Below the pieces are notes generated by a model that did no database searches, was not told the DNA's origin, and saw nothing but the letters and a program-made list of their open reading frames with translations. Of a DNA stretch of 64,000 bases, positions 6,541 through 24,962 are shown one piece after another; the stretch's first letter is position 1; each line of letters starts with the position of its first letter. The stretch lies in the NCBI GenBank assembly GCA_963767735.1, contig CAVYES010000006.1, positions 548,169 to 612,168 on the forward strand, given 5' to 3'. Position numbers and translations under genes: made by a program. Origin of the DNA: Candidatus Bathyarchaeota archaeon. GTDB taxonomy: Archaea; Thermoproteota; Bathyarchaeia; Bathyarchaeales; Bathycorpusculaceae.

Positions 6541-6546
6541 TTGAGT

Positions 6547-8624: not shown

Positions 8625-8700
8625 ACATTGCGGCCTGATGAGATGCGGTTAATTATTTAATCGAATCCGTTCGCTGTGAACAAAAAGCGAGAGTCCTTTC

Positions 8701-8741
8701 TGGCGCTTTGAGGGGGTAATTGCACCTTTTTACCAGTAAAA
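8701..8741. repeat. distal att-like site (degenerate tRNA-Ser end plus right arm)
   Basis: TGGCGCtttGAGGGGGtaattGCACCTTTTTACCAGTAAAA. Confidence 0.6.
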
Positions 8742-8970
8742 AACATTTTTGAAGCCATCATTGACATGTGACCAGCCAACAGTCTGTGTTCAAATCCCAG
8801 CAGTACACCACGATAATCCAGCCCCTGTTTATACGGAGTCTACTTGCATTTTTTAAGAAGTAACATGACAAACCTGTAGACATTTCAGCGGTTTTGTGGT
8901 AGCAGAATGGAATTTTGCATGCACGAGTTTAATAAGAACCATATACAGTTATGATTTTAAGGCATCTCCT

Positions 8971-9186
8971 ATGAAAATCGGTGTTACTGTACACAAAGAA
9001 GGGAAATTGTATGTCGCAGCCGATCCGGTAACCGGCGTAACTAGTCAAGGGAAAACTTGTGATGAAGCTTTAAAAAGTTTCCAAGAGGCTTTCGAGCTTT
9101 GGTTTGAATGTGCTGAAGACTGGGAGAAGGAACGGGCGTTGAACGGTGAGCCAGTGGCTACCTTGGTTTTGGATTTAAAAATTTAG
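8971..9186 (+). CDS. hicB: HicB-family antitoxin (short form)
   Basis: VHKEGKLYVA..P.TGVTSQGKTCDEALKSFQEAFELWFE. Confidence 0.85.
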   Translation: MKIGVTVHKEGKLYVAADPVTGVTSQGKTCDEALKSFQEAFELWFECAEDWEKERALNGEPVATLVLDLKI

Positions 9187-9406
9187 TTACCAACCAAGTT
9201 AAGAAATTCTTCATCTGGAATCCCTGCTTGGAACAAAATGCCTTTGAGCGTACCAATGGCAATCTTTTGGTGCTTTGGAACCACAACTGTCTCATTTTTC
9301 CATTGTAGAAGCCTTTTAGAATTATATGGCTTCCTCGTTGTCTGACAACTTGAAAACCAAATTTACTTAACGTCTTAATTACTATTCGGTGTGAGTACGG
9401 CTTCAT
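9183..9406 (-). CDS. hicA: HicA-family toxin with one frameshift near 9292
   Basis: GFQVVRQRGSHIIL, then in another frame TVVVPKHQKIAIGTLKGILFQAGIPDEEFLNLVGN*. Confidence 0.8.
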
Positions 9407-9490
9407 CCTCAAATGGATCCTCACTAATCAGTTCAAAATGCTAACAGAAATAACTTGCCCCACCTGAGAGGTCTAGATTCAAATCCAAGC

Positions 9491-9652
9491 GGTCCCACTT
9501 TCGCTTATTTTTACCAGTAAAAACTTTTTGCCTTCATTTCAGAGATTTCACAAATAAGTGCAATTATGGCTTATTTATGTGAGATAAGCTCAAAAACAGC
9601 CTTAAAAAAAGCGCTGGGAGGGGGATCCCAGCACTTTTTTACCAGTAAAAAT
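9491..9652. repeat. attP-like junction 1 (left arm, tRNA-Ser core, right arm)
   Basis: Direct repeat of 22841-23003; palindromes at 9509-9522 and 9637-9650; core GCGCTGGGAGGGGGAT at 9611-9626. Confidence 0.8.
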
Positions 9653-9940
9653 GAGTTTTGACCAATTTCTTAAGCGAGCGGGCCCTATGGGATGCGCTTA
9701 AACTTTTAAGCAAATCCTGAGACCTAAAGCTAAATATTAAAAATGTATTTATTACGAACAACAAATTGAGGCGCACTACGGTTTAATTGGAGACGCCATT
9801 GTTGAAATGTTAACTCAATAACTTTTGTCCTCTGATTAAAATAGAGAAAAAAATGGGACGTTCTTGCTTAAATATTCGTCTCAACGGAGAAACTTTGTCT
9901 CTTCTTCTAACGCGCTCTTCTTTTTTCACCTCTAATTTGT

Positions 9941-10144
9941 TTATATATGAGTGAAGTAACAGGGTTCTTCGTTAACGGCACGTTGAGATAGTTTGCTTAT
10001 TTCGAGTTCTGAAACGGCTCGGTTATTCTGGCTTCTAGTCAGACTTGCGGAATCCTTATTTTTTAGGAGCAGTTTGCGGTAAATCTCTTTTGTTTCCGAC
10101 TTTTCCATCCCTGATGTCACTAAGCCCATTTTTGCTTCACTCAT
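9941..10144 (-). CDS. small hypothetical protein
   Basis: MSEAKMGLVTSG..., downstream of the box/TATA at 10175-10202. Confidence 0.4.
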   Translation of the reverse strand: MSEAKMGLVTSGMEKSETKEIYRKLLLKNKDSASLTRSQNNRAVSELEISKLSQRAVNEEPCYFTHI

Positions 10145-10190
10145 TTTTCCTTGATTGCTAATACGTGAAAAAGAATATAAGGATGGTTGT

Positions 10191-10202
10191 GATTTGTTCA
10201 TA
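10191..10202 (-). promoter_or_regulatory. TATGAACAAATC box 1
   Basis: 9 nt upstream of CTTATATT. Confidence 0.7.
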
Positions 10203-10278
10203 TTTATTATGAAATATTGAACGTGTTATAACAATTCTAGGTCAACTTTTGAATATTTATCGCATATTTAAGAAAAAT

Positions 10279-10290
10279 TCTTAACAAATC
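10279..10290 (+). promoter_or_regulatory. box 2 (variant TCTTAACAAATC)
   Basis: 9 nt upstream of TTTAAATA; precedes small ORF and Lrp gene. Confidence 0.6.
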
Positions 10291-10357
10291 ATAACCAGAT
10301 TTAAATAATATGCTGCCGCGTTGTCAAATCAGAAATTGAAAGAGTGAAACCGTAACA

Positions 10358-10594
10358 ATGTTTGACCCAACCCAACTTTTCTGTGCGGGAGTTGGTTTTG
10401 CTTCCTTAACATCGACTTTTGGTTACTTCATGATCTGTTTTAAAAAGAGTCTCAAAGTGCAGACTAATGATAGCGTAAAGTACAGAAAAGGTAGTGATAA
10501 TGCCCGTTTAAAGAAATCGAAACAATCCCGACCGATTCTGAAAAACGGATCAAATAGCATAATATTGAGGTGCTCACGAGGTGGCAGGTACTGA
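10358..10594 (+). CDS. small protein with one N-terminal TM helix
   Basis: MFDPTQLFCAGVGFASLTSTFGYFMICFKKSLKV...; overlaps the Lrp start region. Confidence 0.45.
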   Translation: MFDPTQLFCAGVGFASLTSTFGYFMICFKKSLKVQTNDSVKYRKGSDNARLKKSKQSRPILKNGSNSIILRCSRGGRY

Positions 10595-11061
10595 AAAACA
10601 ATGTTGCTGAAAAATTGGATAACATAGACATTAATATTCTTCATTTGCTTCAGGAAGATTGCCGGCTAAGTTGTCACAAGATCGCGATAAGACTCAAAAT
10701 ATCTGTAGGCACCGTTCTGAAACATGTAGAAGACATGCAGAATAGGGGGCTCTTGAAAGGATATTCTGCAGTTCTGGACTCGGTCAAGCTTGGGTACATG
10801 ATGACAACGGTTATTTTCGTTCAAACTGAAGGTGGGCATCACGATTACATCAAAAACATAATTGTAAATGAGACCAATGTAACGTCTAGCTACGATATTA
10901 CTGGAAACTTCGACTTAGTTCTAATCGCCAAGTTTAAAGAAAGTTCCGACTTGATTTCTTTCATAAAACGATTACTGTTGATTCCCCATGTTCGACGAAC
11001 CGCTACAGACATAGTCCTCAACATAATTAAAGAAGACGCCTCTTCACTAGTGATTGGGTAA
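10570..11061 (+). CDS. Lrp/AsnC family transcription regulator
   Basis: LDNIDINILHLLQEDCRLS..IA..LKISVGTV HTH; ITGNFDLVL RAM domain. Confidence 0.92.
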   Translation: MLTRWQVLKNNVAEKLDNIDINILHLLQEDCRLSCHKIAIRLKISVGTVLKHVEDMQNRGLLKGYSAVLDSVKLGYMMTTVIFVQTEGGHHDYIKNIIVNETNVTSSYDITGNFDLVLIAKFKESSDLISFIKRLLLIPHVRRTATDIVLNIIKEDASSLVIG

Positions 11062-11312
11062 AATGAACATTCAAAATAGATGCTTAACAAAGTGAGGGAA
11101 ACGACGTGAAAAAAACTTTAGGAATAATTGCAGCCTTTAACTCTACCGGACTTTACCACAGAACCGGGCAGGGTCAGTTAAATCTTCAACTAAATCTTTT
11201 CCTGAATTAATATCGATTTGCAGTCGTTGCGCGCGGTGGTGGTTTTTCGTTTTTTCACTAGTTTAATTTTTGAAAGAAACTACGCTTTTCTTAAAAAAAG
11301 TAAAAGGGGGAG

Positions 11313-12872
11313 CTAATCTTTTTTCCAGAACTTGAAGGTTCTGGATTTAGTGCTTGCAGTCTTGATTTCGTCCTCGTCTTTGCCTGGGAATGGGAACAAG
11401 CCGGAGGGCTTCGATTTTGAGTTGACGCGGAAATAGATTAAACCTATTGTCAACCATATTGCGGTGCCGGCTATAGCGAAGATTCCTTCCGTTGCTGAAG
11501 CCCCTCCGCCTGCAAAGCTGAGGTACACGATTGTAGCCATCATAACGGCGTTGGCGGCGAAGCCTGCGATTGGAACTACCCTGCGTTTTAGTATGTTACT
11601 GCGTTCTTTAGTGAATGCTATTAGGGCTACGATGTTTGTTATTCCATACAGTAGGAAGGTACCGAAGTTTGATAGTAATGTTATTGAGGTTAGGTTTGTG
11701 ATTGTTAGTACTCCGAAAGATCCTATAACCGCTGCAACAGCTGTCATTACCCAGATTCCAATCGCTGGAGTTGAGTATTTTGGGTTTAGCTTACTGAGGT
11801 GATAAGGCACTTCGGTGTCTCGGCTGATTGCGTAAGTTACTCTAACGCCGGTGTTCATGCATGCGAGGGTAGTGCCTAATATTGCAGCAGCTACAATTGC
11901 AGCTATTATTAATTCTAATGTGAAACCGTTGCCTCCGAGGAATACGTTTCCCAGGTTGTGAACCATATCGCCGATGGGGGCGCTTGAAACTGCAGCTGCG
12001 CTAAATCCTGTAAATGTCTTGCCACTTTGTGTTATAGTATAGCTGGAGTTCATCCATGCTTCGGCTCCGAAGTATTCAAATAGGTACGCGAAGGCGCCTT
12101 GAATGATCAAAGATAAAATGATTGCTTTTGGAACAACCTTTGGATCTTTGGCTTCTCCGGTATATGCCGTTGCCGATTCGAAGCCGACTAGTACTAAGAT
12201 GGCGATGGTCGCTTGAAATAACACAGTACTGATATCGTGAGGTGTGACTATTCCGCCTAAGCTAGTGAACGTAAAGGATACGTGTTGAGGGTTCAGGAAA
12301 CGGAATGCCAAGGCCATTCCGGTGATTATGACCAGCATTCCGATTTGAACTATGTTGAGGAGAAGGTTTGTTTTTGTTGATCCTTGAATTCCGCGGTAAG
12401 CTATCGCGCCTGTGACGACTGCAAATAAGCAGGCGATGCCGATTTCTCCTAAGGGTGAAATGCTGAATCCTAGTACAGATAAAATCCATGTTAGCAGGAT
12501 GGACATTGCTGCAACCATGACTCCTGGATACACCCAGTAGTATAGGTGTGATATCCAGCCGACGCCGAACTTTGCGTTTCTGGCTGAGGTGTTGCTGCTT
12601 CCGTTGTCTAGTAAGGCTCTTTGAGCAAAGTAATATGAACTACCTGGACCAGCATCGGGATAACGCCGGGCTAGCCACGAGTAAGAAGCGGCAGTTAGGA
12701 ACGCCAAAATTAATGCTAGTGTGAGGCCAAAAAATATGTCGTTGGCTGTTGAAGCGCCAGACGGAGTGGTCTGGGCTGCGTTTATCTGAAAAGTAAGCCA
12801 CAAGAAAGCCCCTGGAGCGATTAGGGCCATGGCGTTTATTGTAATGCCTCCTAGACCGAGGGTTTTTTTCAA
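11313..12872 (-). CDS. APC-superfamily amino acid/polyamine permease
   Basis: KKTLGL, P.AG.SY, GFESAT..GEAKDP, R..YAISRD; ~12 TMs. Confidence 0.9.
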   Translation of the reverse strand: MKKTLGLGGITINAMALIAPGAFLWLTFQINAAQTTPSGASTANDIFFGLTLALILAFLTAASYSWLARRYPDAGPGSSYYFAQRALLDNGSSNTSARNAKFGVGWISHLYYWVYPGVMVAAMSILLTWILSVLGFSISPLGEIGIACLFAVVTGAIAYRGIQGSTKTNLLLNIVQIGMLVIITGMALAFRFLNPQHVSFTFTSLGGIVTPHDISTVLFQATIAILVLVGFESATAYTGEAKDPKVVPKAIILSLIIQGAFAYLFEYFGAEAWMNSSYTITQSGKTFTGFSAAAVSSAPIGDMVHNLGNVFLGGNGFTLELIIAAIVAAAILGTTLACMNTGVRVTYAISRDTEVPYHLSKLNPKYSTPAIGIWVMTAVAAVIGSFGVLTITNLTSITLLSNFGTFLLYGITNIVALIAFTKERSNILKRRVVPIAGFAANAVMMATIVYLSFAGGGASATEGIFAIAGTAIWLTIGLIYFRVNSKSKPSGLFPFPGKDEDEIKTASTKSRTFKFWKKD

Positions 12873-13099
12873 TTGTGTCTTTTGCGGCTGTGAACCTGTT
12901 GAGTCAGCTATTCTATTTTCCCTCCTCTAAGTGGCAAGCTCAAAATAGCGGAAAGTAGTGTGTTGCCTTTTTTAACGAGTAGCGTATCGTGCTTTCTGCT
13001 TGATTTTTTTATATTTGGAGATTTCATTCTCTTTTTCATCTAGTAACACCGAAACTTTTAGTCAATAAAGCAAGTCTAGCGAAATATAAACCTGATTAA

Positions 13100-13111
13100 G
13101 ATTTGTTCATA
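13100..13111 (-). promoter_or_regulatory. TATGAACAAATC box 3 (permease promoter)
   Basis: 9 nt upstream of TTTATATT; overlaps near-palindrome TTCATAA-CTT-TTATGAT. Confidence 0.75.
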
Positions 13112-13422
13112 ACTTTTATGATAAACAGAAATAATGTTCAATTAAAATAAATTAAATTAGACATTTGACTGGACAATTGCTATTTGGTTGAGCATCAGTT
13201 TGACCAAGTTCCGAAAGACACCCATCACTAATTTAACATAATCCCTGATTAAGTTATTTGAAAGTTAACGAATTGCCAAGTCCAAAGATAGTGGAGATTC
13301 ATCCGGAGACTTGGGGACGTGCATATGACTATTCCAGCTTTTCAAGAAGTGAAAAAGGACTTATGCTAAAGTTACAATTAACTACTAATTGGCTTAAACT
13401 ACAGAGCTGTATACATGTCCTT

Positions 13423-16203
13423 TTAAGTGTGGTCGTGGATTTTAAGCGCTTCAGTACTTGTTTTAGTGAATTTACGGCTGAAGAACTTTCTAATTTCCTC
13501 CGCGAAAACAACGATTATAGCCAGTGAAACCAGAAATGCCCAGTTGCTTAAAGAGAGGCTTGTTGTTGTGAAGATGTGCTGCATAAATGGAACATAGACA
13601 ATTAATGATAGGATTCCGATTTGTGATGCGATCCCAAAGATTATCCACTTATTTGTTTTCAAGCTTGTTTTGAAGATTGATTGCTTACTGGTTCGACATG
13701 CTAAGACGTTACCTGCTTGAGCTACTACTATGCCAGCAAAAGTCATAGTTACACCTTTGGCGTAAACTCCGCTAGTATAAAATGAACTGGTACTTGTTAA
13801 TGCCATTCCGAAGTGCCATCCACCCGCCGCCCAAGCATTGAGACACCCAATCATAGCTCCTGCGGCAATGATAACCCCGACGAACACTGAGCGGAGTAGA
13901 ACCTTGCGGGTAAAAAGCCTCTCCTTGATGCTTCTGGGTGGCTCTTGCATAATTCCTGCTTCAGGAGGCTCACGGCTTAAAGCCAATGAAGGAATAACGT
14001 CAATCGCAAGGTCAATTGCTAACACTTGCGGCACAAGCAATGGCAAAGGAATACCTAAAACGGCGTACAATATGAACGGAATCAGTTCAGCCCAGTTATG
14101 CGAAAACACGTAAACAATAAATTTGCGAATATTTTCATAAATTGCCCTGCCAGACTCAATAGCTTTTACAATGGATGCAAAGCTATCATTGAGCAAAACA
14201 ATATCGGCGGCTTCACGAGCAACATCAGTGCCCGACGCGCCCATGGCAACGCCGATGTCAGCTTCCTTAAGCGAAGGTGCATCGTTTGCTCCGTCGCCAG
14301 TTACTGCTACGATTTCTCCGGTCTTTTTGAGCACTGTAACTATGCGTAGTTTCTGTTCAGGTGAAACACGAGCAAAAATCACGTTGCCTTTGCGAACTTC
14401 ATCTATGATTGCTTGGTCGCTTAATTCTTCCAAGTCCACGCCGCGAATAATCTGGCGGTTTTCCCGCTCGACAATTCCAACCTCTTGGGCAATAGCCTGA
14501 GCGGTTGGACCATAGTCCCCAGTGATTATAACGGTTTTTACTCCTGCTTGCCTTGCCTCTAAAACGGCATCTTTGACTTCTGTTCTTGGAGGATCACGCA
14601 TTGCAGCCAAGCCCACAAAAATTAGGTCTTTTTCTGCTTCGTCTTTGTTGTAGGTGCTTTTGGGTATTTCCTTGTATGCAGCAGCTATGACGCGCAAGCC
14701 CTGAGTGGCAAACTCGTGAATCTTTGATTCAATAATCTTAATGTTTTCTTGGTTCAATTCTTCAGCGTTACTGTCAATAAGCACTTTGCTGCAGATGTCC
14801 AAGATGTTCCTGGGAGCACCTTTTGTGTAAATGCAAACGTCTCCGTTCAACTTGTGAACTGTACTCATGCGCTTTCGCTCAAAACTGAACGGTAAAACAT
14901 GTACAATCGGTTTCGCCTCTAAAGCATTTTGAACATTCACATTCGATTTGAGTGCGGCAACAAGTAAAGCACCGTCAGTCGGGTCGCCTATCACACCCCA
15001 ATTTCTGTTTCTGTCCGAAGGAGGATCAAGCTTTGCGCCATTGCAGAGTGCCGTAATCTCAATAAGCTTCTCCAGAGATCCAATTTGGCCCTCCTGCAAT
15101 AGCTGACCTTTTATAGTGAAATCGCCTTCGGGCTTATAGCCTAAGCCCGAAACATCCACAACAGAATCGTAAACCCACAGATTGTTCACAGTCATTTCGC
15201 CTTTTGTTATTGTGCCTGTCTTGTCCGTGCAGATTACCGTGACACTGCCCAAGGTTTGAACAGCTGATAACCGTTTTACCAAAACGTTCTGTTTTACCAT
15301 TTTTAGAACGTTGATGGCTAAGGCGCTGGAAACGGTGACTTGCAACCCTTCAGGAACGCAAGCCACCATTACACCAATCATGAAGAAAATGCCTGTCGCC
15401 AATGTGACATGTAAGAAAAGAAAACTAAAGGCAAAAAATATTGCGCCAACGGCAACGGCAATTATAAAATCATACTTTGCGGTTAAAGCAATTTCTCTTT
15501 GAAGCGGGCTATCTTCTTCATGAATTGTCTGAGTTAAATTAGCTATTCTTCCAAACTGGGTATTCATTCCTGTTGAGTAAACAACTGCTTTTCCTTGACC
15601 CTTAGCGACGCTTGTGCTCATGAAAACGAGGTTTGGAGAATACAAATAGGCTTTCTCAGGAGTTTTCACGACGTCTGCAACGCGAGGTTGTGGTTCCGAC
15701 TCGCCTGTTAAGGGAACATTATTGGTCCATAAGTCAAAAGCTTCAATTAAGCGTCCGTCTGCTGGTACGCGGTCGCCTTCCTCCAGCGATATGATGTCTC
15801 CGGGGACAATTTCTCTGACTGAGATTTTTTTGTGTTCTCCATCTCGGATTACTTTGGCAAACTCGGGCATCCAGCTTTTGAGGGTTGCAATTGCTTTTTC
15901 CGCACGGGACTCTTGGAACATGCTTACAAAAATGTTTACGAAAACGACTGCAAGTATGATTAGGGCAAGTTCTGGACTGCCGCTTATGTAAGATAAGATG
16001 CTTGCGACAAGCAATAAGATGCCGAATAGGTCTCGAAGATGTCTGATAAATTTGTGAATAAACGGTATTTGCCTTTTTTCGGAAAGTTGGTTGTAGCCGT
16101 ATTTTGTTAAGCGGAGTTTTGCCTCTTCGCTTGTCAAACCATTTGGTGATGTCTTGAGTTCGTCGAAGACCTCGGTAATTGGTAAAGAAGCAGCTTTTTC
16201 CAA
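13423..16203 (-). CDS. cation-transporting P-type ATPase (P2, Na/K-like membrane motifs)
   Basis: TGES, VPEGL, DKTGTIT, KGAP, DPPR, TGDGANDAP; TM6 LAIDLAIDVIP. Confidence 0.95.
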   Translation of the reverse strand: MEKAASLPITEVFDELKTSPNGLTSEEAKLRLTKYGYNQLSEKRQIPFIHKFIRHLRDLFGILLLVASILSYISGSPELALIILAVVFVNIFVSMFQESRAEKAIATLKSWMPEFAKVIRDGEHKKISVREIVPGDIISLEEGDRVPADGRLIEAFDLWTNNVPLTGESEPQPRVADVVKTPEKAYLYSPNLVFMSTSVAKGQGKAVVYSTGMNTQFGRIANLTQTIHEEDSPLQREIALTAKYDFIIAVAVGAIFFAFSFLFLHVTLATGIFFMIGVMVACVPEGLQVTVSSALAINVLKMVKQNVLVKRLSAVQTLGSVTVICTDKTGTITKGEMTVNNLWVYDSVVDVSGLGYKPEGDFTIKGQLLQEGQIGSLEKLIEITALCNGAKLDPPSDRNRNWGVIGDPTDGALLVAALKSNVNVQNALEAKPIVHVLPFSFERKRMSTVHKLNGDVCIYTKGAPRNILDICSKVLIDSNAEELNQENIKIIESKIHEFATQGLRVIAAAYKEIPKSTYNKDEAEKDLIFVGLAAMRDPPRTEVKDAVLEARQAGVKTVIITGDYGPTAQAIAQEVGIVERENRQIIRGVDLEELSDQAIIDEVRKGNVIFARVSPEQKLRIVTVLKKTGEIVAVTGDGANDAPSLKEADIGVAMGASGTDVAREAADIVLLNDSFASIVKAIESGRAIYENIRKFIVYVFSHNWAELIPFILYAVLGIPLPLLVPQVLAIDLAIDVIPSLALSREPPEAGIMQEPPRSIKERLFTRKVLLRSVFVGVIIAAGAMIGCLNAWAAGGWHFGMALTSTSSFYTSGVYAKGVTMTFAGIVVAQAGNVLACRTSKQSIFKTSLKTNKWIIFGIASQIGILSLIVYVPFMQHIFTTTSLSLSNWAFLVSLAIIVVFAEEIRKFFSRKFTKTSTEALKIHDHT

Positions 16204-16219
16204 ATAAATTCCGCCAACC

Positions 16220-16432
16220 TCACGATTGACTAATATTTACTACACTTAAATCATTGGGTAATTTTTTAGCGGTTGGCCTTTGTTGGTTCAAGCCAATGGA
16301 GCAGCAACTTTGTTCTATTTCTCGCGCTATGATTTGTCCTGATGTTATGTTCTTCAGAAAATCCATAAAGAGTCTGTCTTTTATCTTCGAGTTTATCGAT
16401 TCTTTCAGATCAGCATAGTAAGAGTAGGACAT
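16220..16432 (-). CDS. small hypothetical protein upstream of ATPase
   Basis: AGGAG SD upstream; ends 16 nt before ATPase start. Confidence 0.35.
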   Translation of the reverse strand: MSYSYYADLKESINSKIKDRLFMDFLKNITSGQIIAREIEQSCCSIGLNQQRPTAKKLPNDLSVVNISQS

Positions 16433-16533
16433 CTAATGTTGCTATTTCTCCTTTCTGTTTAAAACAATCTTTTAGATAATAATGTTTGGGCATCTTAGGG
16501 GGTAGCCTCACGGTTTCAGAAAAACAAAAAAGC

Positions 16534-16723
16534 TTAATGCAAAGCTACGCTGCCGCCTTCATGATGAACATTATAGGCAGCCTGTAGTAAGCGATTTACA
16601 CGACAAAGCTCAGGATAGATTTTTTTGTATTCTTCCGATGCATAGTAATCTATTTCGCATCGGATAAGCTTTTGCTTGACGATTTATTTATTTCAATGCT
16701 TCGTGTATGTTTTTGAATTTCAT
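16534..16723 (-). pseudogene. disrupted small gene
   Basis: MKFKNIHEALK*INRQAKAYP, then frame change to EIDYYASEEYKKIYPELCRVNRLLQAAYNVHHEGGSVALH*. Confidence 0.4.
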
Positions 16724-16770
16724 GTTTTCATCTTCGCTAATTTAGAGGATGTACAAATGGGTTTCTTTTG

Positions 16771-16871
16771 TTACACTTTGATTTTGAGTTCTAACTTGAT
16801 GCTGTACACTATGAAGGCAAATGACCCGATGATTGTCGCCTATCGATAGCTAAATCAATTATTCCAAACAT
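16771..16871 (-). pseudogene. copy of the 32-aa membrane micropeptide gene with two 1-nt insertions
   Basis: Inverted near-identical copy of 22105-22203; GGTGA SD. Confidence 0.7.
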
Positions 16872-16930
16872 ATTTTCACCATTTTACATCTCTCTCAAAG
16901 AGATGCTCAGTTAAATATAAATATATTTAT

Positions 16931-16942
16931 GATTTGTTCATA
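16931..16942 (-). promoter_or_regulatory. TATGAACAAATC box 4 (micropeptide/ATPase transcript)
   Basis: 9 nt upstream of TTTATATT. Confidence 0.75.
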
Positions 16943-17179
16943 ATATTCCTTAAAATATTGACAGCTGTCTAAACTGCAGCAGGAAAATTTATGTGAAATA
17001 AAGCATTAAAGCCCGTTTATGTGATGCACAAAAATTTGATCACTCTTTGAACAATGGAAGTATTCTAGCCCGAGCAGTCAAGCTAAAAAAACAGTTAGCT
17101 AACTGTGTGGTCATATTATAGGTTATATGTCCATATTATTACAGTATTACGTTACAAATTTTTTATTTTTCATAATTTT

Positions 17180-17191
17180 TATGAACAAATC
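17180..17191 (+). promoter_or_regulatory. TATGAACAAATC box 5 (glnA promoter)
   Basis: 9 nt upstream of TTTAAATG; overlaps palindrome TTCATAA-TTT-TTATGAA. Confidence 0.78.
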
Positions 17192-17259
17192 TCAATTACG
17201 TTTAAATGTATTCATCTCTCATTTTGCTAAACAAATAATCTGAATAAATGGTGAAATAA

Positions 17260-18726
17260 ATGGAAAAAAATGATTCAGTGAAAAAAGCTAAAGAGAGCCT
17301 AAAAAGCAACAACATAAGGTGGGTGCATTCTGCCTTCGTTGATATTCGTGGAATACTGCAAGACATGGTGCTTCCAGCAAGGGATTATCTTAGCGGCGAA
17401 GCATTTACTGCAGGAATAGGTTTTGACGGTTCTTCTGTTAGAGGATTTAAATCCATTGAAGAATCAGACATGATTTTCATGCCTGACGCAAAAACACTAT
17501 CTATAATGCCTTGGGTCACAGACGAAAAACAAAAAAGCGCCATAATTCTCGGAGACGTCTACGAAGCCTTCGGAGGAAAAGAGCCATCAGTCGTTGACCC
17601 GAGAAGTTTCGTTGCAAAAAGAGCGGTAGCAGAAGCCAAAGCAATGGGTTACACAGGATTCTTTGCGCCTGAACTCGAGTTCTTCGTCTTTTCCTCAATC
17701 GATCCAACTAAGCTAACTTGGGATCTTTGGGCCGCCCCAAAAAGCGGTGAAGGAGACGCATGGGGAGCACCAAGAGTCGTACCAAACTCGCCAGAAATCA
17801 CTCCAGGCGGATTTGTCATGCGACCCAAAGAAGCATACTACCGAACCCCGCCAGAAGACACCACTGTTGAGTTCAGAAACGAAGTTTGCCAAGTTCTAGA
17901 CGACAACTTTGGCTTAACTATTGAGAAACATCACCACGAAGTAGCTACAGTTGGTCAAGTAGAAATCGACTACAAATACGGCCAACTCGTGGAAACTGCA
18001 GACAGGGCGCTTTACTATAAATTCGTAGCAAAAAACATAGCTCATAATCGCGGATTAATAGCCACATTCATGCCTAAGCCAATCTACTTAGACAACGCTA
18101 GTGGTATGCACGTTCATCAATCAATTTGGTCAGGTGGAAAAACTGCCATGTATGATGAAGCTGACGACTACGCTGAACTGAGCCAAATCGGCAGATACTA
18201 TATTGGTGGATTGCTTGAACACGCCCGAGCTCTAACAGCCGTTTGTTGTCCAACCGTAAGCTCCTACAAACGTTTAGTGCCCGGTTTCGAAGCTCCAATC
18301 TACGTGCTATGGTCTCGACGCAACCGCTCCGCTTTAGTCCGCGTACCATTGTATTACAAAGGACCGGAATTTGCTGCTCAAAAACGTGTCGAATATCGAG
18401 GTGCTGATCCATCATCCAACCCGTACCTGGCATTTGCCTGCCTTTTAGCGGCTGGGCTCGATGGTGTTAAAAAGAAACTTGATCCTGGCGACCCTGTGGA
18501 CGAAGACGTTTACAAACTCTCTGCCGGAAAACGCAAAGAACTTGGTATAAAAGAGTTGCCTACAACACTAAAAGAAGCGTTAGAGGAACTCAAAACCGAT
18601 GAAGTCCTTCAGCGAACACTTGGAAGCCACATTTTCGACGCATTTATCGAGCTTAAAACAAACGATTGGAACCAGTACTGCCTCTACGTGTCACCTTGGG
18701 AAATAATGAAATACCTCGACTACTAA
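17260..18726 (+). CDS. glnA: glutamine synthetase type I
   Basis: FDGSSVRGF, PELEFF, HHHEVA, TFMPKP, GMHVHQS, SYKRLVPGFEAP, NRSALVRVP, NPYLAFA. Confidence 0.97.
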   Translation: MEKNDSVKKAKESLKSNNIRWVHSAFVDIRGILQDMVLPARDYLSGEAFTAGIGFDGSSVRGFKSIEESDMIFMPDAKTLSIMPWVTDEKQKSAIILGDVYEAFGGKEPSVVDPRSFVAKRAVAEAKAMGYTGFFAPELEFFVFSSIDPTKLTWDLWAAPKSGEGDAWGAPRVVPNSPEITPGGFVMRPKEAYYRTPPEDTTVEFRNEVCQVLDDNFGLTIEKHHHEVATVGQVEIDYKYGQLVETADRALYYKFVAKNIAHNRGLIATFMPKPIYLDNASGMHVHQSIWSGGKTAMYDEADDYAELSQIGRYYIGGLLEHARALTAVCCPTVSSYKRLVPGFEAPIYVLWSRRNRSALVRVPLYYKGPEFAAQKRVEYRGADPSSNPYLAFACLLAAGLDGVKKKLDPGDPVDEDVYKLSAGKRKELGIKELPTTLKEALEELKTDEVLQRTLGSHIFDAFIELKTNDWNQYCLYVSPWEIMKYLDY

Positions 18727-18753
18727 GCATCAAAGCAAAAAGCAGGATTAAAC

Positions 18754-19740
18754 ATGGCACCAGATACATCATGAATATGAGAAGCTACTGCCAGAAATCC
18801 GAACGACTAACAGATGAAGTCGTCAAACAAAACATGGCTGACGGAATCCTGTTCTCAGCTGGAATACGACACAAGCATAATTGCCTACCATGCAGTCAAA
18901 TACAAACCCAAAATCCCCGCTTTGACCATGGCTTTTAAGCATGGCCACCCAAAAGACACCGAATACGTTAAAAAAATGGTGGATTTCCTTCACCTTCAAC
19001 ATGAATTCCACACTTTTGACCGCGAAGACGTACTGACTTCAGCTGAAAAAATCGTTCAGGTTCTTAAGATTTTTGATCCCATGGAAATAAGGAATGCTGT
19101 TTCAGTTTACATCGGCTTAACTATCGCAAAGAAAAAAGGAATTAAAAGCGTTTTCACCGGAGACGGAGTGGATGAGCTATTTGGTTATCCTTGGATGTGG
19201 AGTCTATCTGAAGCTGAATTAACCAAAAAATTCAAAGACATGTGGGGAGAAATGGGTTTCTCTTCAATTCCCATGGGCAAATCCTTAGGTGTTGAAGTAA
19301 AGCCGCCTTTTCTAGACCCATTGTTCATGGATTACGCAAAGAAGCTGCCCAACAAACTGAAAATCAACGAAGAAAACGGCGTAAAATACAGCAAATGGAT
19401 CCTTCGCAAAGCATATGAAGATTTGATTCCTAAAGAAGTGATTTGGCGACCCAAAGCACCTTTGGAGCAAGGAACTGGCACCACGGCTCTTCAGCATTAC
19501 TTCGATAAGCAACTTTCCGACAAAGATTTTGCAGAGCGCAAAAAACAAATCCTTGAGAAAGACGACGTTGTAATAACCAGCAAAGAGCAACTGATTTTAC
19601 TATGACTTCTTCCGAAAACACTTCGCAAAACCATCAAGCGTCTACAAGGAAAAGATAGGCAGGCAATGTCCCAACTGTAAAAGCTACGTGAAAACAGAGC
19701 TTGGGATTCTGCAAAGTATGCGGAAACATATCCCATCTAA
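18754..19740 (+). CDS. asparagine-synthase C-terminal (ATP pyrophosphatase) domain protein lacking glutaminase domain, C-terminal Zn ribbon; several frameshifts
   Basis: ILFSAG.DTS, FTGDGVDELFGY, PFLD, KWILRKAY, IWRPKAP; tail CPNC...CKVC in shifted frames. Confidence 0.75.
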
Positions 19741-19798
19741 TTTCCTTTTTTCATATTTACTTAAAATAATGGTTTAAGGTATTTTGCGGTTGGAGATT

Positions 19799-21469
19799 AT
19801 GTGCGGAATAGTTGGGATTTTTAACATAATCTGAGCCAGTGCCTCAAGCAAGAGACAAAGCACTGCGAATGGCAACTAAAATAAGGCATAGAGGACCCGA
19901 CTGGAGCGGCATCTACAGCGACGACAAAGCAATTCTTGCACATGAACGGCTCTCCATCGTTGACGTTGAACATGGAGCACAACCATTATTTGACAAAATC
20001 AACGGCAACGTTCTTGCTGTAAACGGCGAAATTTACAACCACATGCTTCTTCGAAGCGAACTTAAGAAGGAGCATTTGTGGCAGACAAAATCAGACTGCG
20101 AAGTAATCCTGTACCTCTACGATGAGTACGGTCCAGACTTCCTAAACATGCTAAACGGCATGTTCGCCTTCATACTATACGATAAGAAAAAAGGACAGTA
20201 CTTCATTGCAAGAGACCACATCGGGATCATTCCGCTGTATGTCGGCTGGGATGACAAAGGAACTTTTTATGTCGCCAGCGAAATGAAAGCCCTAAATGAC
20301 TATTGTACGACTGTCAAAGAGTTCCCTCCAGGACATTATCTACTGGGCAATGGGAAAGATTTCGTTAGATGGTATAAGCCTGAGTGGGCGGAGAAAATTC
20401 CAACAAAGAAACTAGTTCTCGCAGACCTGAGAAAGGCATTGGAGAAATCTGTAAAGGGACAAATGATGTCTGACGTTCCCTATGGTGTTCTTATCTCGGG
20501 AGGATTGGATTCTTCGTTGATAGCTGCTATCGCTTCGAAGTTCAGGAAGAAAAGGGTTGAATCTGGCGACAAAGAAGAGGCATGGTGGCCACGTTTGCAC
20601 TCATTCGCTGTAGGCTTAGCAGATTCGCCTGATTTGAAATACGCCAATAAGGTTGCCGACTACATTGGAACTGTGCATCATGAAATAATTTTCACTATAC
20701 AGGAAGGTTTTGACGCGATACGGGATGTCATTTATCATTTGGAAACATTTGATGTTACCACTATTCGTGCCGCTACTCCCATGTATTTGATGGCTAGAAA
20801 AATAAAATCCATGGGCATCAAAATGGTCTTATCCGGTGAAGGCGCAGACGAAGTCTTCGGCGGATACCTTTATTTCCACAAAGCACCAAATAAACAGGAA
20901 TTCTACGAAGAAACCGTAAGGAAGCTATTCTTGCTAAGCAAATACGATTGCCTTCGAGCAAACAAAGCAACTGCTGCTTGGGGTGTTGAAACCCGAGTGC
21001 CATTTTTAGATAAGGAGTTTTTGGATTTTGCCATGGGCTTTGACCCTCAAGAGAAAATGTGCTCGGGTGACAAAATCGAAAAGTATGTATTAAGAAAGGC
21101 GTTTGAAGGCTACATTCCTGAAGAGATTCTTTGGAGGCAAAAAGAACAGTTCTCCGACGGGGTCGGTTACGGATGGATAGATTATCTCAAAAAATACGTT
21201 GAAAGCGCGGTAACAGATGAAATGATGGCGAACGCTAAAAGTAAGTTCCCTCTCAAACTCCGTCATCAAAAGAGGAGTATTATTACAGGCAGATATTTGA
21301 CGGCTACTTCACCTGCCCCACTGCAGCATTAACCGTTCCGGTAGGTCCAACAATTGCCTGTTCCACCCCTACAGCCTTTAGATGGAGCAAAGAATTTGCA
21401 AAAATGGCTGACCCTTCAGGCAGATCCGTTAAAGAACACAACCAAACGTTAAACGAAAGCAAGAAATAA
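19799..21469 (+). CDS. asnB: asparagine synthetase B (glutamine-hydrolysing); frameshifts near 19830 and 21255
   Basis: MCGIVG start at 19799, HRGPDWSG, VNGEIYNH, SGGLDSS, SGEGADE, WRQKEQFSDGVG; C-terminal ACSTPTA...DPSGR in alternate frame. Confidence 0.93.
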
Positions 21470-21674
21470 TAATCCAAACTTTAATTGGTACATGCATGGT
21501 TGATTCAGATTTTCCTTTCGAATTAATTGCTTCTAGAAACTATAAACTCCTAAGAATCGCATGTATTTCGTTTTTTCTGATTTTTCCATAGAATCTAATT
21601 TCATTTTGTCGACCAATAGTTAAAAAACAAAAAATGGTTTGAAAGATTTTGTTCTAGGCAACTGGCCTTTGAAA

Positions 21675-21917
21675 CTACATTGGTGATAGTACAATGGAGG
21701 TTTCTGTTCGGATTACGCTGGGGTCTTTTTCAATTATCTTGTAAACAACTTGGTTTATGTCTTCAAGTGCTGGAGCTTCTAAAACTATTATTGCATCGTA
21801 TCGACCGAAGATTGCGTCGGCAGATACTATGCAGGTCTCCTTGACTTTTTCTTTTATTTTCTTAACAACGTCCAAGGATGTGCCGGGTTTAGTGCTTAAG
21901 AGTATATAGGCTTTCAA
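21675..21917 (-). CDS. stand-alone Lrp/AsnC ligand-binding (RAM) domain protein
   Basis: KAYILL...PG...V...IFGRYDAII...VIRTETSIV; no HTH. Confidence 0.85.
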   Translation of the reverse strand: MKAYILLSTKPGTSLDVVKKIKEKVKETCIVSADAIFGRYDAIIVLEAPALEDINQVVYKIIEKDPSVIRTETSIVLSPM

Positions 21918-22033
21918 TTTTTTTTCCTCTTTTTCTTTTTGCTTGTTTAGGTTTAAGCTTAACAGTATTAACGTGTTATTGCATATAAATTTTCTGTTTT
22001 GATTTAGACGTATGTCGAGTATTTATGAAAAAT

Positions 22034-22045
22034 TATGAACAAATC
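22034..22045 (+). promoter_or_regulatory. TATGAACAAATC box 6 (micropeptide promoter)
   Basis: 9 nt upstream of TTTATATT. Confidence 0.75.
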
Positions 22046-22104
22046 ATAACTATATTTATATTTAGCTGAGCAAGTAAATAAGTATACAATAAAATGGTGA
22101 AAAT

Positions 22105-22203
22105 ATGTTTGGAATAATTGATTTAGTATCGATAGCGACAATCATCGGGTCATTTGCCTTCATAGGGTACAGCATCAAGTTAGAACTCAAAATCAAAGTG
22201 TAA
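22105..22203 (+). CDS. 32-aa single-TM micropeptide (absent from ORF track)
   Basis: MFGIIDLVSIATIIGSFAFIGYSIKLELKIKV; GGTGA SD, own promoter, second copy in the island. Confidence 0.7.
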   Translation: MFGIIDLVSIATIIGSFAFIGYSIKLELKIKV

Positions 22204-22430
22204 CACAAAACTCGGGCAACAGCGCGGCTAGTCTTCGGTGATGAGGTTCTTATCACATTACTGATAACCTAATACACGCTTCCTAAAATGACGCACAAAT
22301 GAATATCCCACTGATTCTGTTATTTTAATAATAACGCGGCTGTGGGATACAACCGCTATTTTTTTGGTTCTTAATCTTGCAGATTCCTCAAAAGGAAAGA
22401 AAAGAGAAGGAGAAATGATTTTTCCATGAT

Positions 22431-22592
22431 CTATATTTTCTTTTTTCCCAATGTTGTTCTGAAGGTTTTGCCGCAGCATTCGCAAAGACCGATTGTCAGT
22501 TCTGTTCTTTTTCCTGTTTTGTCTGGTCTACCCGCCATCTTCCAAGTCTTTTTTGGAGCAACTTCTTTTCCACATTTGGGACATTTCGCCAT
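22431..22592 (-). CDS. Cren7-like small chromatin protein with Zn-ribbon cysteines
   Basis: MAKCPKCGKEVAPKKTWKMAG...IGLCECCGKTFR matches the Cren7 P.K.W...IGL...GK.FR pattern. Confidence 0.7.
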   Translation of the reverse strand: MAKCPKCGKEVAPKKTWKMAGRPDKTGKRTELTIGLCECCGKTFRTTLGKKKI

Positions 22593-22840
22593 TTTACATT
22601 CCTCATCAGAGCATTGAAACCATGCTCTATAAACGCTTTTTGTAGAAAAGTGCAATTCTCATAAAGATCGATAAGCTTCAATCAATGGTTGCTAGTCAGT
22701 TATTTTGTATTTTTTTAATCAATCATGCTCTTCGCTTTTGTTCCAAAATCGACGACATATTCGTGGGTCCAAACCCGAAAATACATAGGTCTCTATGGTA
22801 CTTGAACCAGAAACGGTTCAGAACCTTTATTGGGTTGCCC

Positions 22841-23003
22841 AGGTCCACTTTCGCTTATTTTTTACTTGTAAAAATTTTCGCTGAGATTTCAGAAATTTTC
22901 GACAAATAAGGTGTAATTGAGACTATATAGCTAAACTAGCCTCAAAAACTGCCCTAAAAAAAGCGCCGGGAGGAGGATACTAGCACCAATTTACCAGTAA
23001 AAA
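22841..23003. repeat. attP-like junction 2
   Basis: CCACTTTCGCTTATTTTTTACTTGTAAAA...CTCAAAAACTGCCCTAAAAAAAGCGCCGGGAGGAGGAT..AGCAC..TTTACCAGTAAAAAT. Confidence 0.8.
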
Positions 23004-23121
23004 TAGAGAGAAAAAGTAAGTCGTTGTATCTTTGTTTTTGTGCTTTCCAAAAGCTATTTAGAGTATAGCGAGACATAATTAAATCAGTATTTTCTCTTTA
23101 ATTACAGTTGGTTACCCGACT

Positions 23122-24573
23122 ATGCGCAAGAAAAATAGTGTTGGGCGGAATCTTGTTGATAAATACCGTACTTATGTAGAAAGCTCGCCTGTTGCTTTTT
23201 TCATTATTAATCCCGAAAGTAAATATGTCGAGGTAAATGATGCTGCTTGTAGATTGGTTGGTTATTCCAAAGAAGAACTTTTAGAAAAAACTGCTTCAAA
23301 TCTTGTGTTTGAAGAAGACATTCCATTAGCGCGAAAACATCATTCCAAGTTAAAAGAAACGGGAAAGTCTGTTACAGAGTTTAGGCTAAAGAGAAAAGAT
23401 AGGCAACCTGTATATGTTATTTTAAACGCAACGCAGTTGCCTGATGGAAATTTAATGGCTTTCTGTGAAAACATAACTGAACGCAAGAAAGCTGAAGACG
23501 CTCTTTTGGAAAGTGAGGTGAAATATGAGCAGCTTGTTGATAGGTTACCTGAAATGGTTTTTGAAATCGACCTCACTGGGCATGTTTCTTTTGCTAATTT
23601 GAGGGCAGTTGAGATTTTGGGTTATTCGAAGGCTGAGCTTGAGGATGATTTTGATGCTAATCGTCTTGTCGCGGCTGATGATGTCGCGCGTTCGAAGGAA
23701 AATATGAGATTAATGTTTGATAGAGGCATACGCCAGAGTTATGAATACATTTTCGTTAAAAGGAATGGGGAGCGTTTTCCTGTTTTATTGAATAGTGAGC
23801 CGATTATAAAAAATAACAAGATTGTTGGGGCTAGGGGAATTGTCATTGACATAAGTGAACGTAAGGATATGGAGAAGAGGCTTCAAGAACAAGAACGTTT
23901 GGCCGCTATAGGCACTACGGCAGGCATGGTTGGACATGATATTCGTAATCCCTTGCAAGCTATGACTGGCGACGTTTACTTAGCCAGGGCGGAATTAGTT
24001 CATACTCCTCAAAGTAAAGAGAGAAAAAATGCGTTGGAGAATTTGCAAGAGATTGAACAAAACATTGATTACATCGATAAGATTGTCGCTGACCTCCAAG
24101 ATTTTGCTAGAATTATCTATCCGAGCGGTAAAAAAACAGACTTAGTGAGCCTTTTCAAAGAAATTCTACTGAAAAACAACTTACCAGCCAGCATCAAGGT
24201 TTTTTGCAAAGTAGACAAAGCTGCCAAACTTGTGTTTGTTGACCCTGAGTTACTAAAAAGAGTTTTAAGTAATTTAGTGCTAAACGCGGTTCAAGCGATG
24301 CCTGAGGGCGGAGAACTTTCTGTTAGGGCTATTATCAAAGATGGAGGCTTTGTTATTGAAGTTAAAGACACAGGTGTGGGAATACCTGAAGATGTTAAAA
24401 CTAAAATATTTACTCCTATGTTCACCACCAAAGCTAAGGGTCAAGGATTCGGATTGGCAGTTGTGAAACGGTTAACTGAAGCGATGAATGGAACTGTGGC
24501 TTTTGAAAGTGAACAAGGTAAAGGAACCAAATTCACGGTACGATTGCCCAATAAGAAGATAAATGGCGACTAA
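23122..24573 (+). CDS. PAS-PAS sensor histidine kinase (no cognate regulator nearby)
   Basis: Two PAS/PAC domains, GHDIRNPL, NLVLNAVQAM, DTGVGI, FTTK, GFGL. Confidence 0.93.
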   Translation: MRKKNSVGRNLVDKYRTYVESSPVAFFIINPESKYVEVNDAACRLVGYSKEELLEKTASNLVFEEDIPLARKHHSKLKETGKSVTEFRLKRKDRQPVYVILNATQLPDGNLMAFCENITERKKAEDALLESEVKYEQLVDRLPEMVFEIDLTGHVSFANLRAVEILGYSKAELEDDFDANRLVAADDVARSKENMRLMFDRGIRQSYEYIFVKRNGERFPVLLNSEPIIKNNKIVGARGIVIDISERKDMEKRLQEQERLAAIGTTAGMVGHDIRNPLQAMTGDVYLARAELVHTPQSKERKNALENLQEIEQNIDYIDKIVADLQDFARIIYPSGKKTDLVSLFKEILLKNNLPASIKVFCKVDKAAKLVFVDPELLKRVLSNLVLNAVQAMPEGGELSVRAIIKDGGFVIEVKDTGVGIPEDVKTKIFTPMFTTKAKGQGFGLAVVKRLTEAMNGTVAFESEQGKGTKFTVRLPNKKINGD

Positions 24574-24847
24574 ACCCCATAGCTGGCGACCCCGTTTGGA
24601 AACCGAACTCTAAACATGATATCAGAAATTGAACTGGAGATAGGCATCCAACTCGAAGTAAAATTTCCTACATGTCTGCGGGCAAAAAAGTTGCTCGCAT
24701 TCAAATTTCTTGGATTCCTCTTATTGTCGATGAACTAATGGCCTCTGCTTTTGCAAGATTTCAAATGTAGCAAAAGACTAATTTAAATAGAGTTTAGCTA
24801 TTTAATTTTAGACAAAATAAGCTCAAAAATAGCTCCAACTGGTAAAA

Positions 24848-24962
24848 TGGCGCCGGGAGGGGGATTTGAACCCCCGAGGCCCCGAGAGGCCACAAGCTGC
24901 TTGGTGCTTGCCTTAGGCAAACATCTCCAGGCTTGCTCCCTGCCTGGCTAGGAGACCCCGGC
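24848..24962 (-). tRNA. tRNA-Ser(GGA) with 26-nt canonical 37/38 intron (24899-24924), encoded CCA
   Basis: Acceptor GCCGGGG/TCCCGGC, anticodon arm CAAGC-CTGGAG^A-GCTTG, long variable arm, GGTTCAAATCC. Confidence 0.93.

Follow-up and report, generated by a model that had tools for sequence, protein, structure and literature searches.

How did several copies of a tRNA 3′ end come to stand in a row beside a single tRNA gene, with no integrase among them? The question is raised by the tRNA-Ser(GGA) locus of a soil archaeon (Bathyarchaeia) with a genome of 3.04 Mb and a guanine-cytosine (GC) content of 43%. The window, by which we mean the whole 64,000-nt stretch that was analysed (G000:C6:548169-612168), holds this tRNA gene and partial copies of its 3′ end on one side of it. 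G000 denotes the host genome, other G numbers the genomes of relatives and L numbers loci from relatives; coordinates are window positions unless a contig (C6, C4, C8 and so on) is named. An original prediction had seen in these copies an integron-type array of cargo modules stacked on the tRNA. Our analysis suggests that the repeats are probably an accreted, largely fossil array of non-autonomous integrative elements, similar to the cis-mobilizable elements (CIMEs) of streptococci.

A tandem array of att-like sites at tRNA-Ser(GGA)

The tRNA-Ser(gga) gene was found by ARAGORN with introns allowed at C6 c[573016,573130]; default ARAGORN and Rfam both missed it. The attachment (att)-like features that lie within the window are as follows.

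24848-24962, - strand: tRNA-Ser(GGA) gene with a 26-nt intron (aragorn -i)
24848-24865, read on the + strand: tRNA 3′ end TGGCGCCGGGAGGGGGAT, the att core
8701-8741, + strand: S5, degenerate attL-type site, with TGG (CCA), a decayed core at 8703-8718 and a right arm ending in TTTTACCAGTAAAA at 8728-8741
9495-9652, + strand: S6, attP-like internal junction, with core 9611-9626 (GCGCTGGGAGGGGGAT, one mismatch), type-A left arm 9495-9610 (palindrome 9509-9522) and right arm 9627-9652 (CCCAGCAC and the palindrome at 9637-9650)
22845-23004, + strand: S7, attP-like internal junction, with core 22963-22978 (GCGCCGGGAGGAGGAT), type-A left arm 22845-22962 (variant palindrome 22860-22873) and right arm 22979-23004
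24683-24847, + strand: type-B left arm (attR arm), abutting the tRNA 3′ end

With up to three mismatches allowed, the 16-nt core GCGCCGGGAGGGGGAT matches the window three times, always on the + strand: at 9611 and 22963 with one mismatch each, and exactly at 24850. By chance 0.12 matches would be expected, and none of 100 shuffles reached three. A degenerate copy upstream begins at 8703 (not at 8702, as first proposed) and reads GCGCTTTGAGGGGGTA, with five mismatches counted by eye; it is preceded by TG, so that TGG is retained. BLAST detected this copy through its right arm (E 4.8e-4), as did a profile made from 138 public sites (E 1.9e-4). The palindrome TTTTACCAGTAAAA is exact at 8728, 9509 and 9637 and carries one or two mismatches at 22860 and 22989; over both strands it has 10 matches against 1.7 expected, a number reached by none of 100 shuffles. 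It sits 10-12 nt to the right of each of the three window cores outside the tRNA, and it or a variant of it recurs ~100 nt to the left of both internal cores (9611 and 22963).

The array does not end at 8701, as had been supposed. Four more sites lie upstream on the + strand (C6:522519, 523685, 528834 and 537970), 10-26 kb before the start of the window, and the whole array thus comprises eight sites, S1 to S7 and the tRNA, over ~50 kb (C6:522519-573018), all on the + strand and in the orientation of the tRNA end. The cores delimit modules of, from left to right, 1.2, 5.1, 9.1, 18.9, 0.9, 13.4 and 1.9 kb, at least seven over 50 kb in place of the three originally proposed. In a profile search of the 3.04-Mb genome, seven of the ten matches at E < 0.01 fell in this 50-kb stretch, and the motif is therefore not scattered; the other three are at C6:413571, C4:201908 and, more weakly, C8:247230. 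Base composition is uninformative, the array having 0.37-0.45 GC and the genome 0.43.

A sister att family was also seen, on another tRNA-Ser-type end (GCGCCGGGGAAGGGAT), at G000 C8:247228, C8:208009, C6:365819 and C5:21605. It has a left arm of its own, CTCAAGAACAAGGACYCTACTTTGTTGATG, and a right arm with TTTACTAGTAAA.

Anatomy of the sites

The two internal copies, S6 and S7, can be aligned over ~160 nt with 78% identity. S2, S3, S6 and S7 have both arms, S1 has both in decayed form, and S4 combines a type-B left arm with a right arm. In S5 there is only a right arm, the left arm being absent, while the tRNA site has only a left arm and the body of the tRNA stands where the right arm would be. 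The site alignment accordingly places the right arm, CCCAGCAC(C)-T/A run-TTTACCAGTAAAA, at S1 to S7 and not at the tRNA. Left arms are of two types: type A, with a distal palindrome, occurs at S1, S2, S3, S6 and S7, and type B at S4 and the tRNA, the two sharing only a proximal box, AAAATAA(G/C)CTCAAAAA. The tRNA's type-B arm is 75% identical over 191 nt to the arm of S4 (C6:537798-537985).

Much of what had been predicted for these sites is borne out by the alignment: the recurrence of the core at 22963 and 9611 and in a degenerate upstream copy, the ~120-nt left arm, short right arm and near-palindromes of the internal copies, and the single right arm and retained TGG of the copy at 8701. 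The succession of attL, attP-like and attR sites expected of tandem integration at a tRNA 3′ end is likewise supported. For the tRNA, the claim of a left arm alone stands. The claim that this arm is the one seen at 9495 and 22845 has to be given up; it shares with them only the proximal box AAAATAAGCTCAAAAA and belongs to the second type, like the arm at C6:537970.

GCGCYGGGA and TCCCAGC form an inverted repeat around GGGGGA(T), which would correspond to the usual layout of a tyrosine-recombinase core. The right-arm variants ACTAGC, TCTAGC and CATAGC, found in relatives, are uncompensated in the left half, and a folded hairpin is therefore not what is conserved. For 138 distinct public sites with an exact right arm, we compared the 10 nt to the left with the tRNA: 58 had at most two mismatches, 42 had three to five and 38 had six or more. 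These counts show a sharp break at GGGGAT and do not look like uniform decay.

Several arms have noteworthy neighbours. At 9466-9494 and 22820-22844, and also at C6:522604, a tRNA-Pro/Arg-like 3′-end remnant (TTCAAATCCAAGCGGTCCCAC) in the opposite orientation precedes type-A left arms, which suggests that these may be leftovers of elements targeting another tRNA. Just downstream of many right arms lies a hairpin with the loop TGAGTCGGACC(G) (L109:10031-10090, L099, L043, L048, L055 and others; G000 C6:413607-413660), and other copies of the right arm are followed instead by T-arm-like fragments of other tRNA genes. Searching Rfam with the L109 hairpin at E up to 1 gave chance-level matches only.

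The tRNA-Ser locus in relatives

We compared the host with one draw of 100 congeners, which was searched repeatedly (101 genomes with G000). The right-arm pattern, with at most two mismatches, is present in 46 of the 101 genomes including G000, in one to nine copies each, and a reversed control pattern in none; the tRNA-Ser(GGA) gene was found in 90. According to tables cross-read by hand, 21 of the 46 site-bearing genomes have at least one site that shares the contig and the orientation of the tRNA and lies no more than 65 kb away on its 3′ side, and many of the remaining ones are fragmented assemblies. When 44 public genome loci were oriented by their site, tRNA-Ser(GGA) lay 0.2-8 kb to the right in nine, always on the complementary strand and never reversed. 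Near-identical motifs are confined to records of Bathyarchaeota/Bathyarchaeia, apart from a few metagenome-assembled genomes labelled otherwise.

The comparison of tRNA-Ser(GGA) loci that the original prediction had proposed reveals empty, single and multiple occupancy, with differing cargo and order. In G003, G014 and G002 the 3′ flank of the tRNA is unique and armless, and these genes look like empty sites. Type-B arms flank the tRNA in G000 and G001, and a type-A arm does so in G012; among 30 congener loci whose flanks were read by eye, about half have type-A or type-B arms (type B in several) and the others unique flanks. G012 has a single module of 7.9 kb, a six-gene operon resembling an energy-converting hydrogenase, placed between an attL-type site and a left arm plus tRNA, with no integrase. 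In L098 (from G094), a 234-bp insert lies between direct repeats of the 18-mer TGGCGCCGGGAGGGGGAT, CCA included.

The boundaries of one module could be followed across genomes. Homologues of module 7, the kinase module between S7 and the tRNA, occur in G100 and G068 with 89-91% DNA identity, and the homology begins exactly at window 22963. The left neighbours of this module are mutually unrelated in the three genomes. Its left boundary coincides exactly with the core in three species. The S7-type sites of G100 and G068 are decaying, through a mutated palindrome or a 1-nt deletion. G109, G085 and G100 have other arrays, in which some modules known from G000 occur in a different array order or are found outside the array in G000. 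A homologue of G000 C4:355839-357300, for example, is present in both G100 and G109, and a methylpurine glycosylase (MPG)-DUF488 pair with 94% identity adjoins a site in G085. G109 has three sites and the tRNA, with spacings of 4.1, 1.1 and 0.95 kb.

At three loci (L070:6826-8295 and two further public ones) a gene for the large terminase subunit of a head-tailed virus was noticed 0.4-9 kb to the left of right-arm sites. Proviruses may share the regions of such sites.

Search for a recombinase

That no integrase lies inside the array, as had been claimed, was confirmed by two scans with the Phage_integrase profile (PF00589). There were no matches among the 74 open reading frames (ORFs) of C6:512000-577000 searched with Pfam, nor in a six-frame scan of C6:505000-577000. 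A six-frame scan of the whole genome gave 18 matches, none of them between C6:164450 and C6:582349, and the unannotated ORFs of the array region yielded no recombinase with Pfam, NCBIfam or PHROGs. The recombinase nearest to the array is a 295-aa tyrosine-recombinase ORF at 33875-34762, in a separate classical integrated element at a tRNA-Arg gene; because the same scan detected it, it serves as a positive control for detectability.

In relatives the picture is similar. PF00589 matches in 15 genomes, some possibly the same genome counted twice, include none beside a site. When 13 recombinases of G000 were compared by tblastn with ORFs near 44 genome and 118 metagenome loci, only L091, L081 (weakly) and L185 responded, the last with a 150-aa integrase fragment 0.8 kb from a half-site; a profile search would be more sensitive than tblastn with so few queries, and a divergent enzyme may have escaped. 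Within ±1.5 kb of the tRNA at 30 tRNA-Ser loci there was no recombinase except an integrase remnant of 30-38 aa in G120, 1 kb from tRNA-Ser. Among viral contigs, the right-arm pattern had no match and the 18-nt core had one, in unrelated high-GC coding sequence.

Several candidates were considered and rejected. Family II tyrosine recombinases (C5:137933 and copies) had come into view because 600 bp situated 0.7 kb beyond one copy recur in a module of G109. Their elements end in a tRNA-Pro-like 3′ end, and their presence in 62 of the 101 genomes does not track that of the sites: G013, G018, G002, G010, G067 and G068 have sites without a family II match, and G005, G008, G014, G072 and G077 have several matches and are free of sites. 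The integrases found 5-10 kb from solo sites (C4:206776, L091 and G106:C48) stand beside tRNA-Arg or tRNA-Pro or on the wrong side and have no arms; that of L091 adjoins tRNA-Pro. An integrase near the sites at the DnaJ locus of G084 belongs to tRNA-Leu. As an observation in its own right, the family II element measures at least 4.6 kb, occurs in copies 88-98% identical (G000 C5:134814-139432, C5:1-4588 and C6:1-4586), carries a 476-478-aa tyrosine recombinase at its right end and terminates in a tRNA-Pro(GGG)-like 3′ end (...CCCAGCGGCCTCACCAC).

Contigs of four public runs, compared with window 7000-26500, contained no joints across modules; their coverage was thin (best share 0.27) and is uninformative on excision. 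Of their loose ends, those at 9616 and 9659 stem from the copy at S3 in the same genome, whereas the tRNA of another organism accounts for the ones at 24848 and 24882.

A proposed model of repeated integration

We propose that the repeats would be the junctions left by repeated site-specific integration of one element family into the 3′ end of tRNA-Ser(GGA). The attP of the free element would span ~160-190 bp and consist of the left arm, an 18-nt core and the right arm. In the left arm, the proximal box AAAATAAGCTCAAAAA would lie 20-35 nt from the core, to which type A would add the TTTTACYRGTAAAA palindrome ~100 nt from the core. The core itself would be the tRNA end from CCA through the first two bases of the T-loop, TGGCGCCGGGAGGGGGAT, and in the right arm CCCAGCAC would pair with GCGCYGGGA as an inverted repeat around GGGGGAT, with a second TTTTACCAGTAAAA 4-5 nt later. 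Each integration would restore the tRNA, now with a left arm only, and displace a core with a right arm only; further integrations would then produce internal junctions with both arms. A tyrosine recombinase acting in trans may have been the agent, exchanging strands within GGGGGAT and binding the palindromes as arm-type sites.

Repeated site-specific integration at the tRNA 3′ end fits the polarity of the array, its pattern of one-armed and two-armed sites, the occurrence of tRNA genes that are empty or occupied once, the direct repeats of 18 nt and the breakpoints that fall at the core. The absence of an integrase, the very small modules and the degraded state of the cores are in keeping with tandem accretion of elements that are non-autonomous or have decayed; as the elements carry no recombinase, they are non-autonomous.

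A number of observations weigh against accretion by integration. One concerns G057, the relative with the longest DNA match (84%), which carries window -4415 to 22142 as one collinear block. Within it, 2825-10388 (7.5 kb in G000, with S5, hicAB and S6) is replaced by 1.5 kb, while the stretch of module 6 from 10388 to 22142 is collinear with G057:C5. The block lies far from tRNA-Ser, inserted between the homologues of two neighbouring G000 loci (C7:113220 and C7:113550); the tRNA-Ser gene of G057 is carried by a different contig and has one site at a distance of 5.2 kb. No site was found in the block by pattern or profile, and its ends coincide with neither S4 nor S7. Because this is a single block without sites, the boundaries at S5 and S6 are not boundaries in G057. 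From the collinearity it follows that module 6 (the "nitrogen" module) travels there together with part of a module to its left. An independent cassette status of the "nitrogen" module is thus not demonstrated, since in G057 this module and DNA from the module left of hicAB are collinear.

The remaining difficulties concern the sites themselves. S1 and S3 with their adjacent kinase genes form a duplicated unit (733 nt at 89.5%), so that duplication, in place of integration, produced part of the array. In relatives, many right-arm sites sit away from tRNA-Ser, some of them at conserved positions; examples are the sites to either side of a DnaJ gene in G010 and G084, with related sites at several other loci, and those near tRNA-Pro, tRNA-Arg and tRNA-Gln genes. 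All seven cores outside the tRNA differ from it at one to five positions, and those of S7, S2, S1 and S5 differ within the putative crossover GGGGGAT (in S7 the single mismatch falls there), while S3, S4 and S6 keep it intact. Since all seven are mutated, the array looks old and not freshly shuffled. Finally, the cognate recombinase was found nowhere, and the enzymology is wholly inferred. Later rearrangement and duplication have also shaped the array.

Alternative explanations

Could the array still be active? A host or episomal recombinase might, in trans, continue to capture, excise and reshuffle integrase-less cassettes at tRNA-Ser(GGA) across the genus, in the manner of an integron, with the ~30-nt right arm under selection as the recombination site. 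Modules as small as 0.2-1.9 kb with complete arms would be expected of such a platform, and so would the exactness of the right arm in the 138 public sites despite unrelated flanks, its presence in 46 of 101 congeners, the recurrence of the same cargo at different array positions in G100, G109 and G085, and the intact GGGGGAT of S3, S4 and S6. We nevertheless consider this unlikely, as no recombinase stands beside the array or, apart from the G120 remnant of 30-38 aa, within 1.5 kb of tRNA-Ser at 30 loci, every core outside the tRNA is mutated in G000, S7-type sites are decaying in G100 and G068, and the modules have several genes on both strands. The lack of a joint over any module in the public-run contigs points the same way, with little weight given the thin coverage. 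It is likewise doubtful that the genus possesses a gene-cassette system anchored on tRNA-Ser, whose non-autonomous units of 0.2-19 kb, each with an attP of ~160 bp (18-nt core and TTTTACCAGTAAAA arms), would be inserted, excised and exchanged between species by a trans-acting recombinase.

Segmental duplication of DNA next to the tRNA (kinase, arm and tRNA end), followed by homologous recombination and with no site-specific integration at all, would account for the S1/S3 duplicates, in which a further 675 nt match at 71%. PAS histidine kinases are moreover the commonest neighbours of sites (30 ORFs in 16 of 45 regions, at a median of 279 nt to the left of the site), and G001 also has a kinase beside its arm and tRNA. 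As a general explanation duplication is improbable, since most modules have only their sites in common, two unrelated arm types are combined with the same core and right arm, and relatives show apparently empty sites and single insertions with unrelated cargo.

Least probable of all is that the 160-bp unit is a repeat akin to a miniature inverted-repeat transposable element (MITE), or a conserved regulatory or terminator module, which merely resembles a tRNA end and was spread or kept independently of integration: the same 14-nt near-palindrome does bound type-A units on both sides, S2 has perfect 15-nt inverted repeats, the core and CCCAGCAC form a hairpin followed by a T run, in several species right-arm sites flank the conserved DnaJ gene, and in G057 the same genes stand without a single unit. 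Against this, the copies are clustered (seven of ten in one 50-kb stretch) and all in the tRNA's orientation, half-units with only a right or only a left arm occur exactly where integration predicts them, an 18-nt direct repeat including CCA flanks the 234-bp insert, some tRNA genes are wholly armless and, given the uncompensated right-arm variants, the hairpin is not the conserved feature.

Cargo of the modules

The array carries varied cargo. As judged by Pfam, it includes PAS histidine kinases, response regulators, a DUF5678 pair, a TFIIB homologue, flavodoxin, VapBC, a HicA ORF with a HicB-like ORF, methylpurine glycosylase, an Lrp regulator, a permease, a P-type ATPase, glutamine synthetase, asparagine synthases and the final kinase. 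The modules that lie between sites of the window are given below.

8742-9494: module 5, 0.75 kb, a convergent pair of a HicB-like ORF (8896/8972-9186, + strand) and a HicA-family ORF (9158-9424, - strand)
9653-22844: module 6 ("nitrogen"), 13.2 kb, with an Lrp/AsnC regulator, an amino-acid permease, a P-type cation ATPase, glutamine synthetase, two asparagine-synthase ORFs and small ORFs
23005-24682, + strand: module 7, with a PAS histidine kinase at 23122-24573

In module 5 the HicA ORF matches HicA_toxin with E 2.2e-7. The sole match of the + strand ORF is DUF7387 (E 3.7e-6, just under the cut-off), and we read this ORF as putatively HicB-like. Palindromic boxes (ATGATTTGTTCATAA / TTATGAACAAATCAT) are found in intergenic regions of module 6, at 10174-10306, 13083-13130, 16914-16961, 17161-17207 and 22015-22061; they look like candidate operator sites of one regulator. 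The ORF after S3 looks, by our reading, like a PD-(D/E)xK nuclease with a later start.

Neighbouring features

Just past the 5′ side of tRNA-Ser, 25090-25560 contains tandem 10-nt CT-rich repeats (ACTTTTCTTC-like) and three 79-nt repeats spaced by 170-178 nt.

The classical element mentioned above (33762-39251) is associated with a tRNA-Arg(CCT)-like gene, and its 295-aa recombinase ORF starts 5 nt past the end of that gene. At least 30 nt of the gene's 3′ end, with one mismatch allowed, are repeated directly at 33837 and 39218. The recombinase scores 47.6 bits against a cut-off of 265 for the NCBIfam integron integrase and is also far below the cut-off for XerA. Integration may have split the gene and left this ORF as its C-terminal portion, given that related ORFs in the genome are longer (400-478 aa). 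In the tRNA-Arg(CCT)-like gene the 5′ acceptor strand is apparently ~34 nt away from the D arm, and Rfam matches model positions 10-63 only; we read the gap as a possible non-canonical intron.

Significance

Bathyarchaeia are abundant and mostly uncultured, and little is known of their gene exchange. Two papers on this group mention integrases and proviruses, and their text, as far as available, describes no tRNA-Ser att family or integrase-less arrays (PMC10848311, PMC11705971). The att family described here, conserved in 46 of 101 congeners, delimits variable gene blocks beside a single tRNA gene and can serve as a marker for accessory DNA in genomes of Bathyarchaeia. Its core and palindromic arms offer a defined substrate for fishing out the missing recombinase, and the locus lends itself to testing whether islands in archaea, as in streptococci, are built by accretion of non-autonomous elements. 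Should the array still be active, it would represent a cassette-exchange mechanism distinct from integrons. If the genus did have a cassette system of the kind discussed above, it would be analogous in function to integrons, would rest on a tRNA attB and on double-stranded arm-type sites, and would move cellular genes of an ordinary kind such as histidine kinases, toxin-antitoxin pairs, nitrogen-assimilation genes and a hydrogenase-like operon.

Comparison with known systems

Classical archaeal elements integrated in tRNA genes encode a tyrosine integrase of the pNOB8 or SSV type. The tRNA-Ser family shares with them, and with the tRNA-Arg element of the window (33837-39251), direct repeats of the 3′ part of the tRNA at the ends. 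It differs from them in its short core (16-18 nt), in its conserved palindromic arms and in having no integrase, whole or split, at its ends. MITEs are many dispersed copies with terminal inverted repeats and target-site duplications; the copies seen here are clustered and polar, although type-A units do carry palindromes resembling inverted repeats.

The comparison with integrons, to which the original prediction had likened the array, shows likeness in outline. As in integrons and in clusters of attC sites lacking an integron integrase (CALINs), which one survey reports also in Archaea (PMC9668308), gene-bearing units lie between copies of a recombination site, often with no recombinase near, and their distribution is patchy. 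The array nevertheless has no IntI or attI beside it, its sites, tied to the 3′ end of a tRNA, appear to consist of two double-stranded arms in place of an attC that is recognised as a folded single strand (R''-L''/L'-R'), and its modules of 0.75-18.9 kb hold several genes on both strands, whereas integron cassettes are mostly single promoterless ORFs in one orientation. An Rfam scan of the window at gathering thresholds gave a tRNA as its sole match, the presence of an attC model in the library being unverified. By the criteria for archaeal integrons as set out in PMC9668308, the tRNA-Ser array is not an integron; the main text of the paper nowhere contains the string "Bathyarchae".

The closest parallel is found in streptococci. 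According to the account in PMC5704250, CIMEs accrete there in tandem with integrative and conjugative elements (ICEs) or integrative and mobilizable elements (IMEs) at tRNA 3′ ends. The array of the tRNA-Ser locus differs from streptococcal CIMEs in its archaeal host (Bathyarchaeia), in the lack of an autonomous partner or integrase in the ~190 loci examined, in having up to eight sites per array and modules down to 0.2 kb, and in its cargo of ordinary cellular genes (histidine kinases, toxin-antitoxin pairs, glutamine synthetase, a hydrogenase-like operon). The remnants that bear on decay from an autonomous element are two, the 30-38 aa in G120 and the 150 aa in L185. A CIME would become mobile through a related autonomous element that inserts next to it, the two then leaving as one composite. 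CIMEs are described as bounded by att sites, free of integration genes and provided with internal chimeric att sites when in arrays (PMC5704250). At tRNA-Ser, attL and attR are direct repeats of the 3′ end of the target with element-derived arms, and the elements contain no integration genes in the PF00589 scans (no search was aimed at transfer genes). The origin expected for CIME arrays is integration, decay and a new integration into an att site that contains the tRNA end (PMC5704250), and like such arrays the one described here consists of att-bounded elements without integration genes, set in tandem at a tRNA 3′ end and joined by chimeric internal sites.

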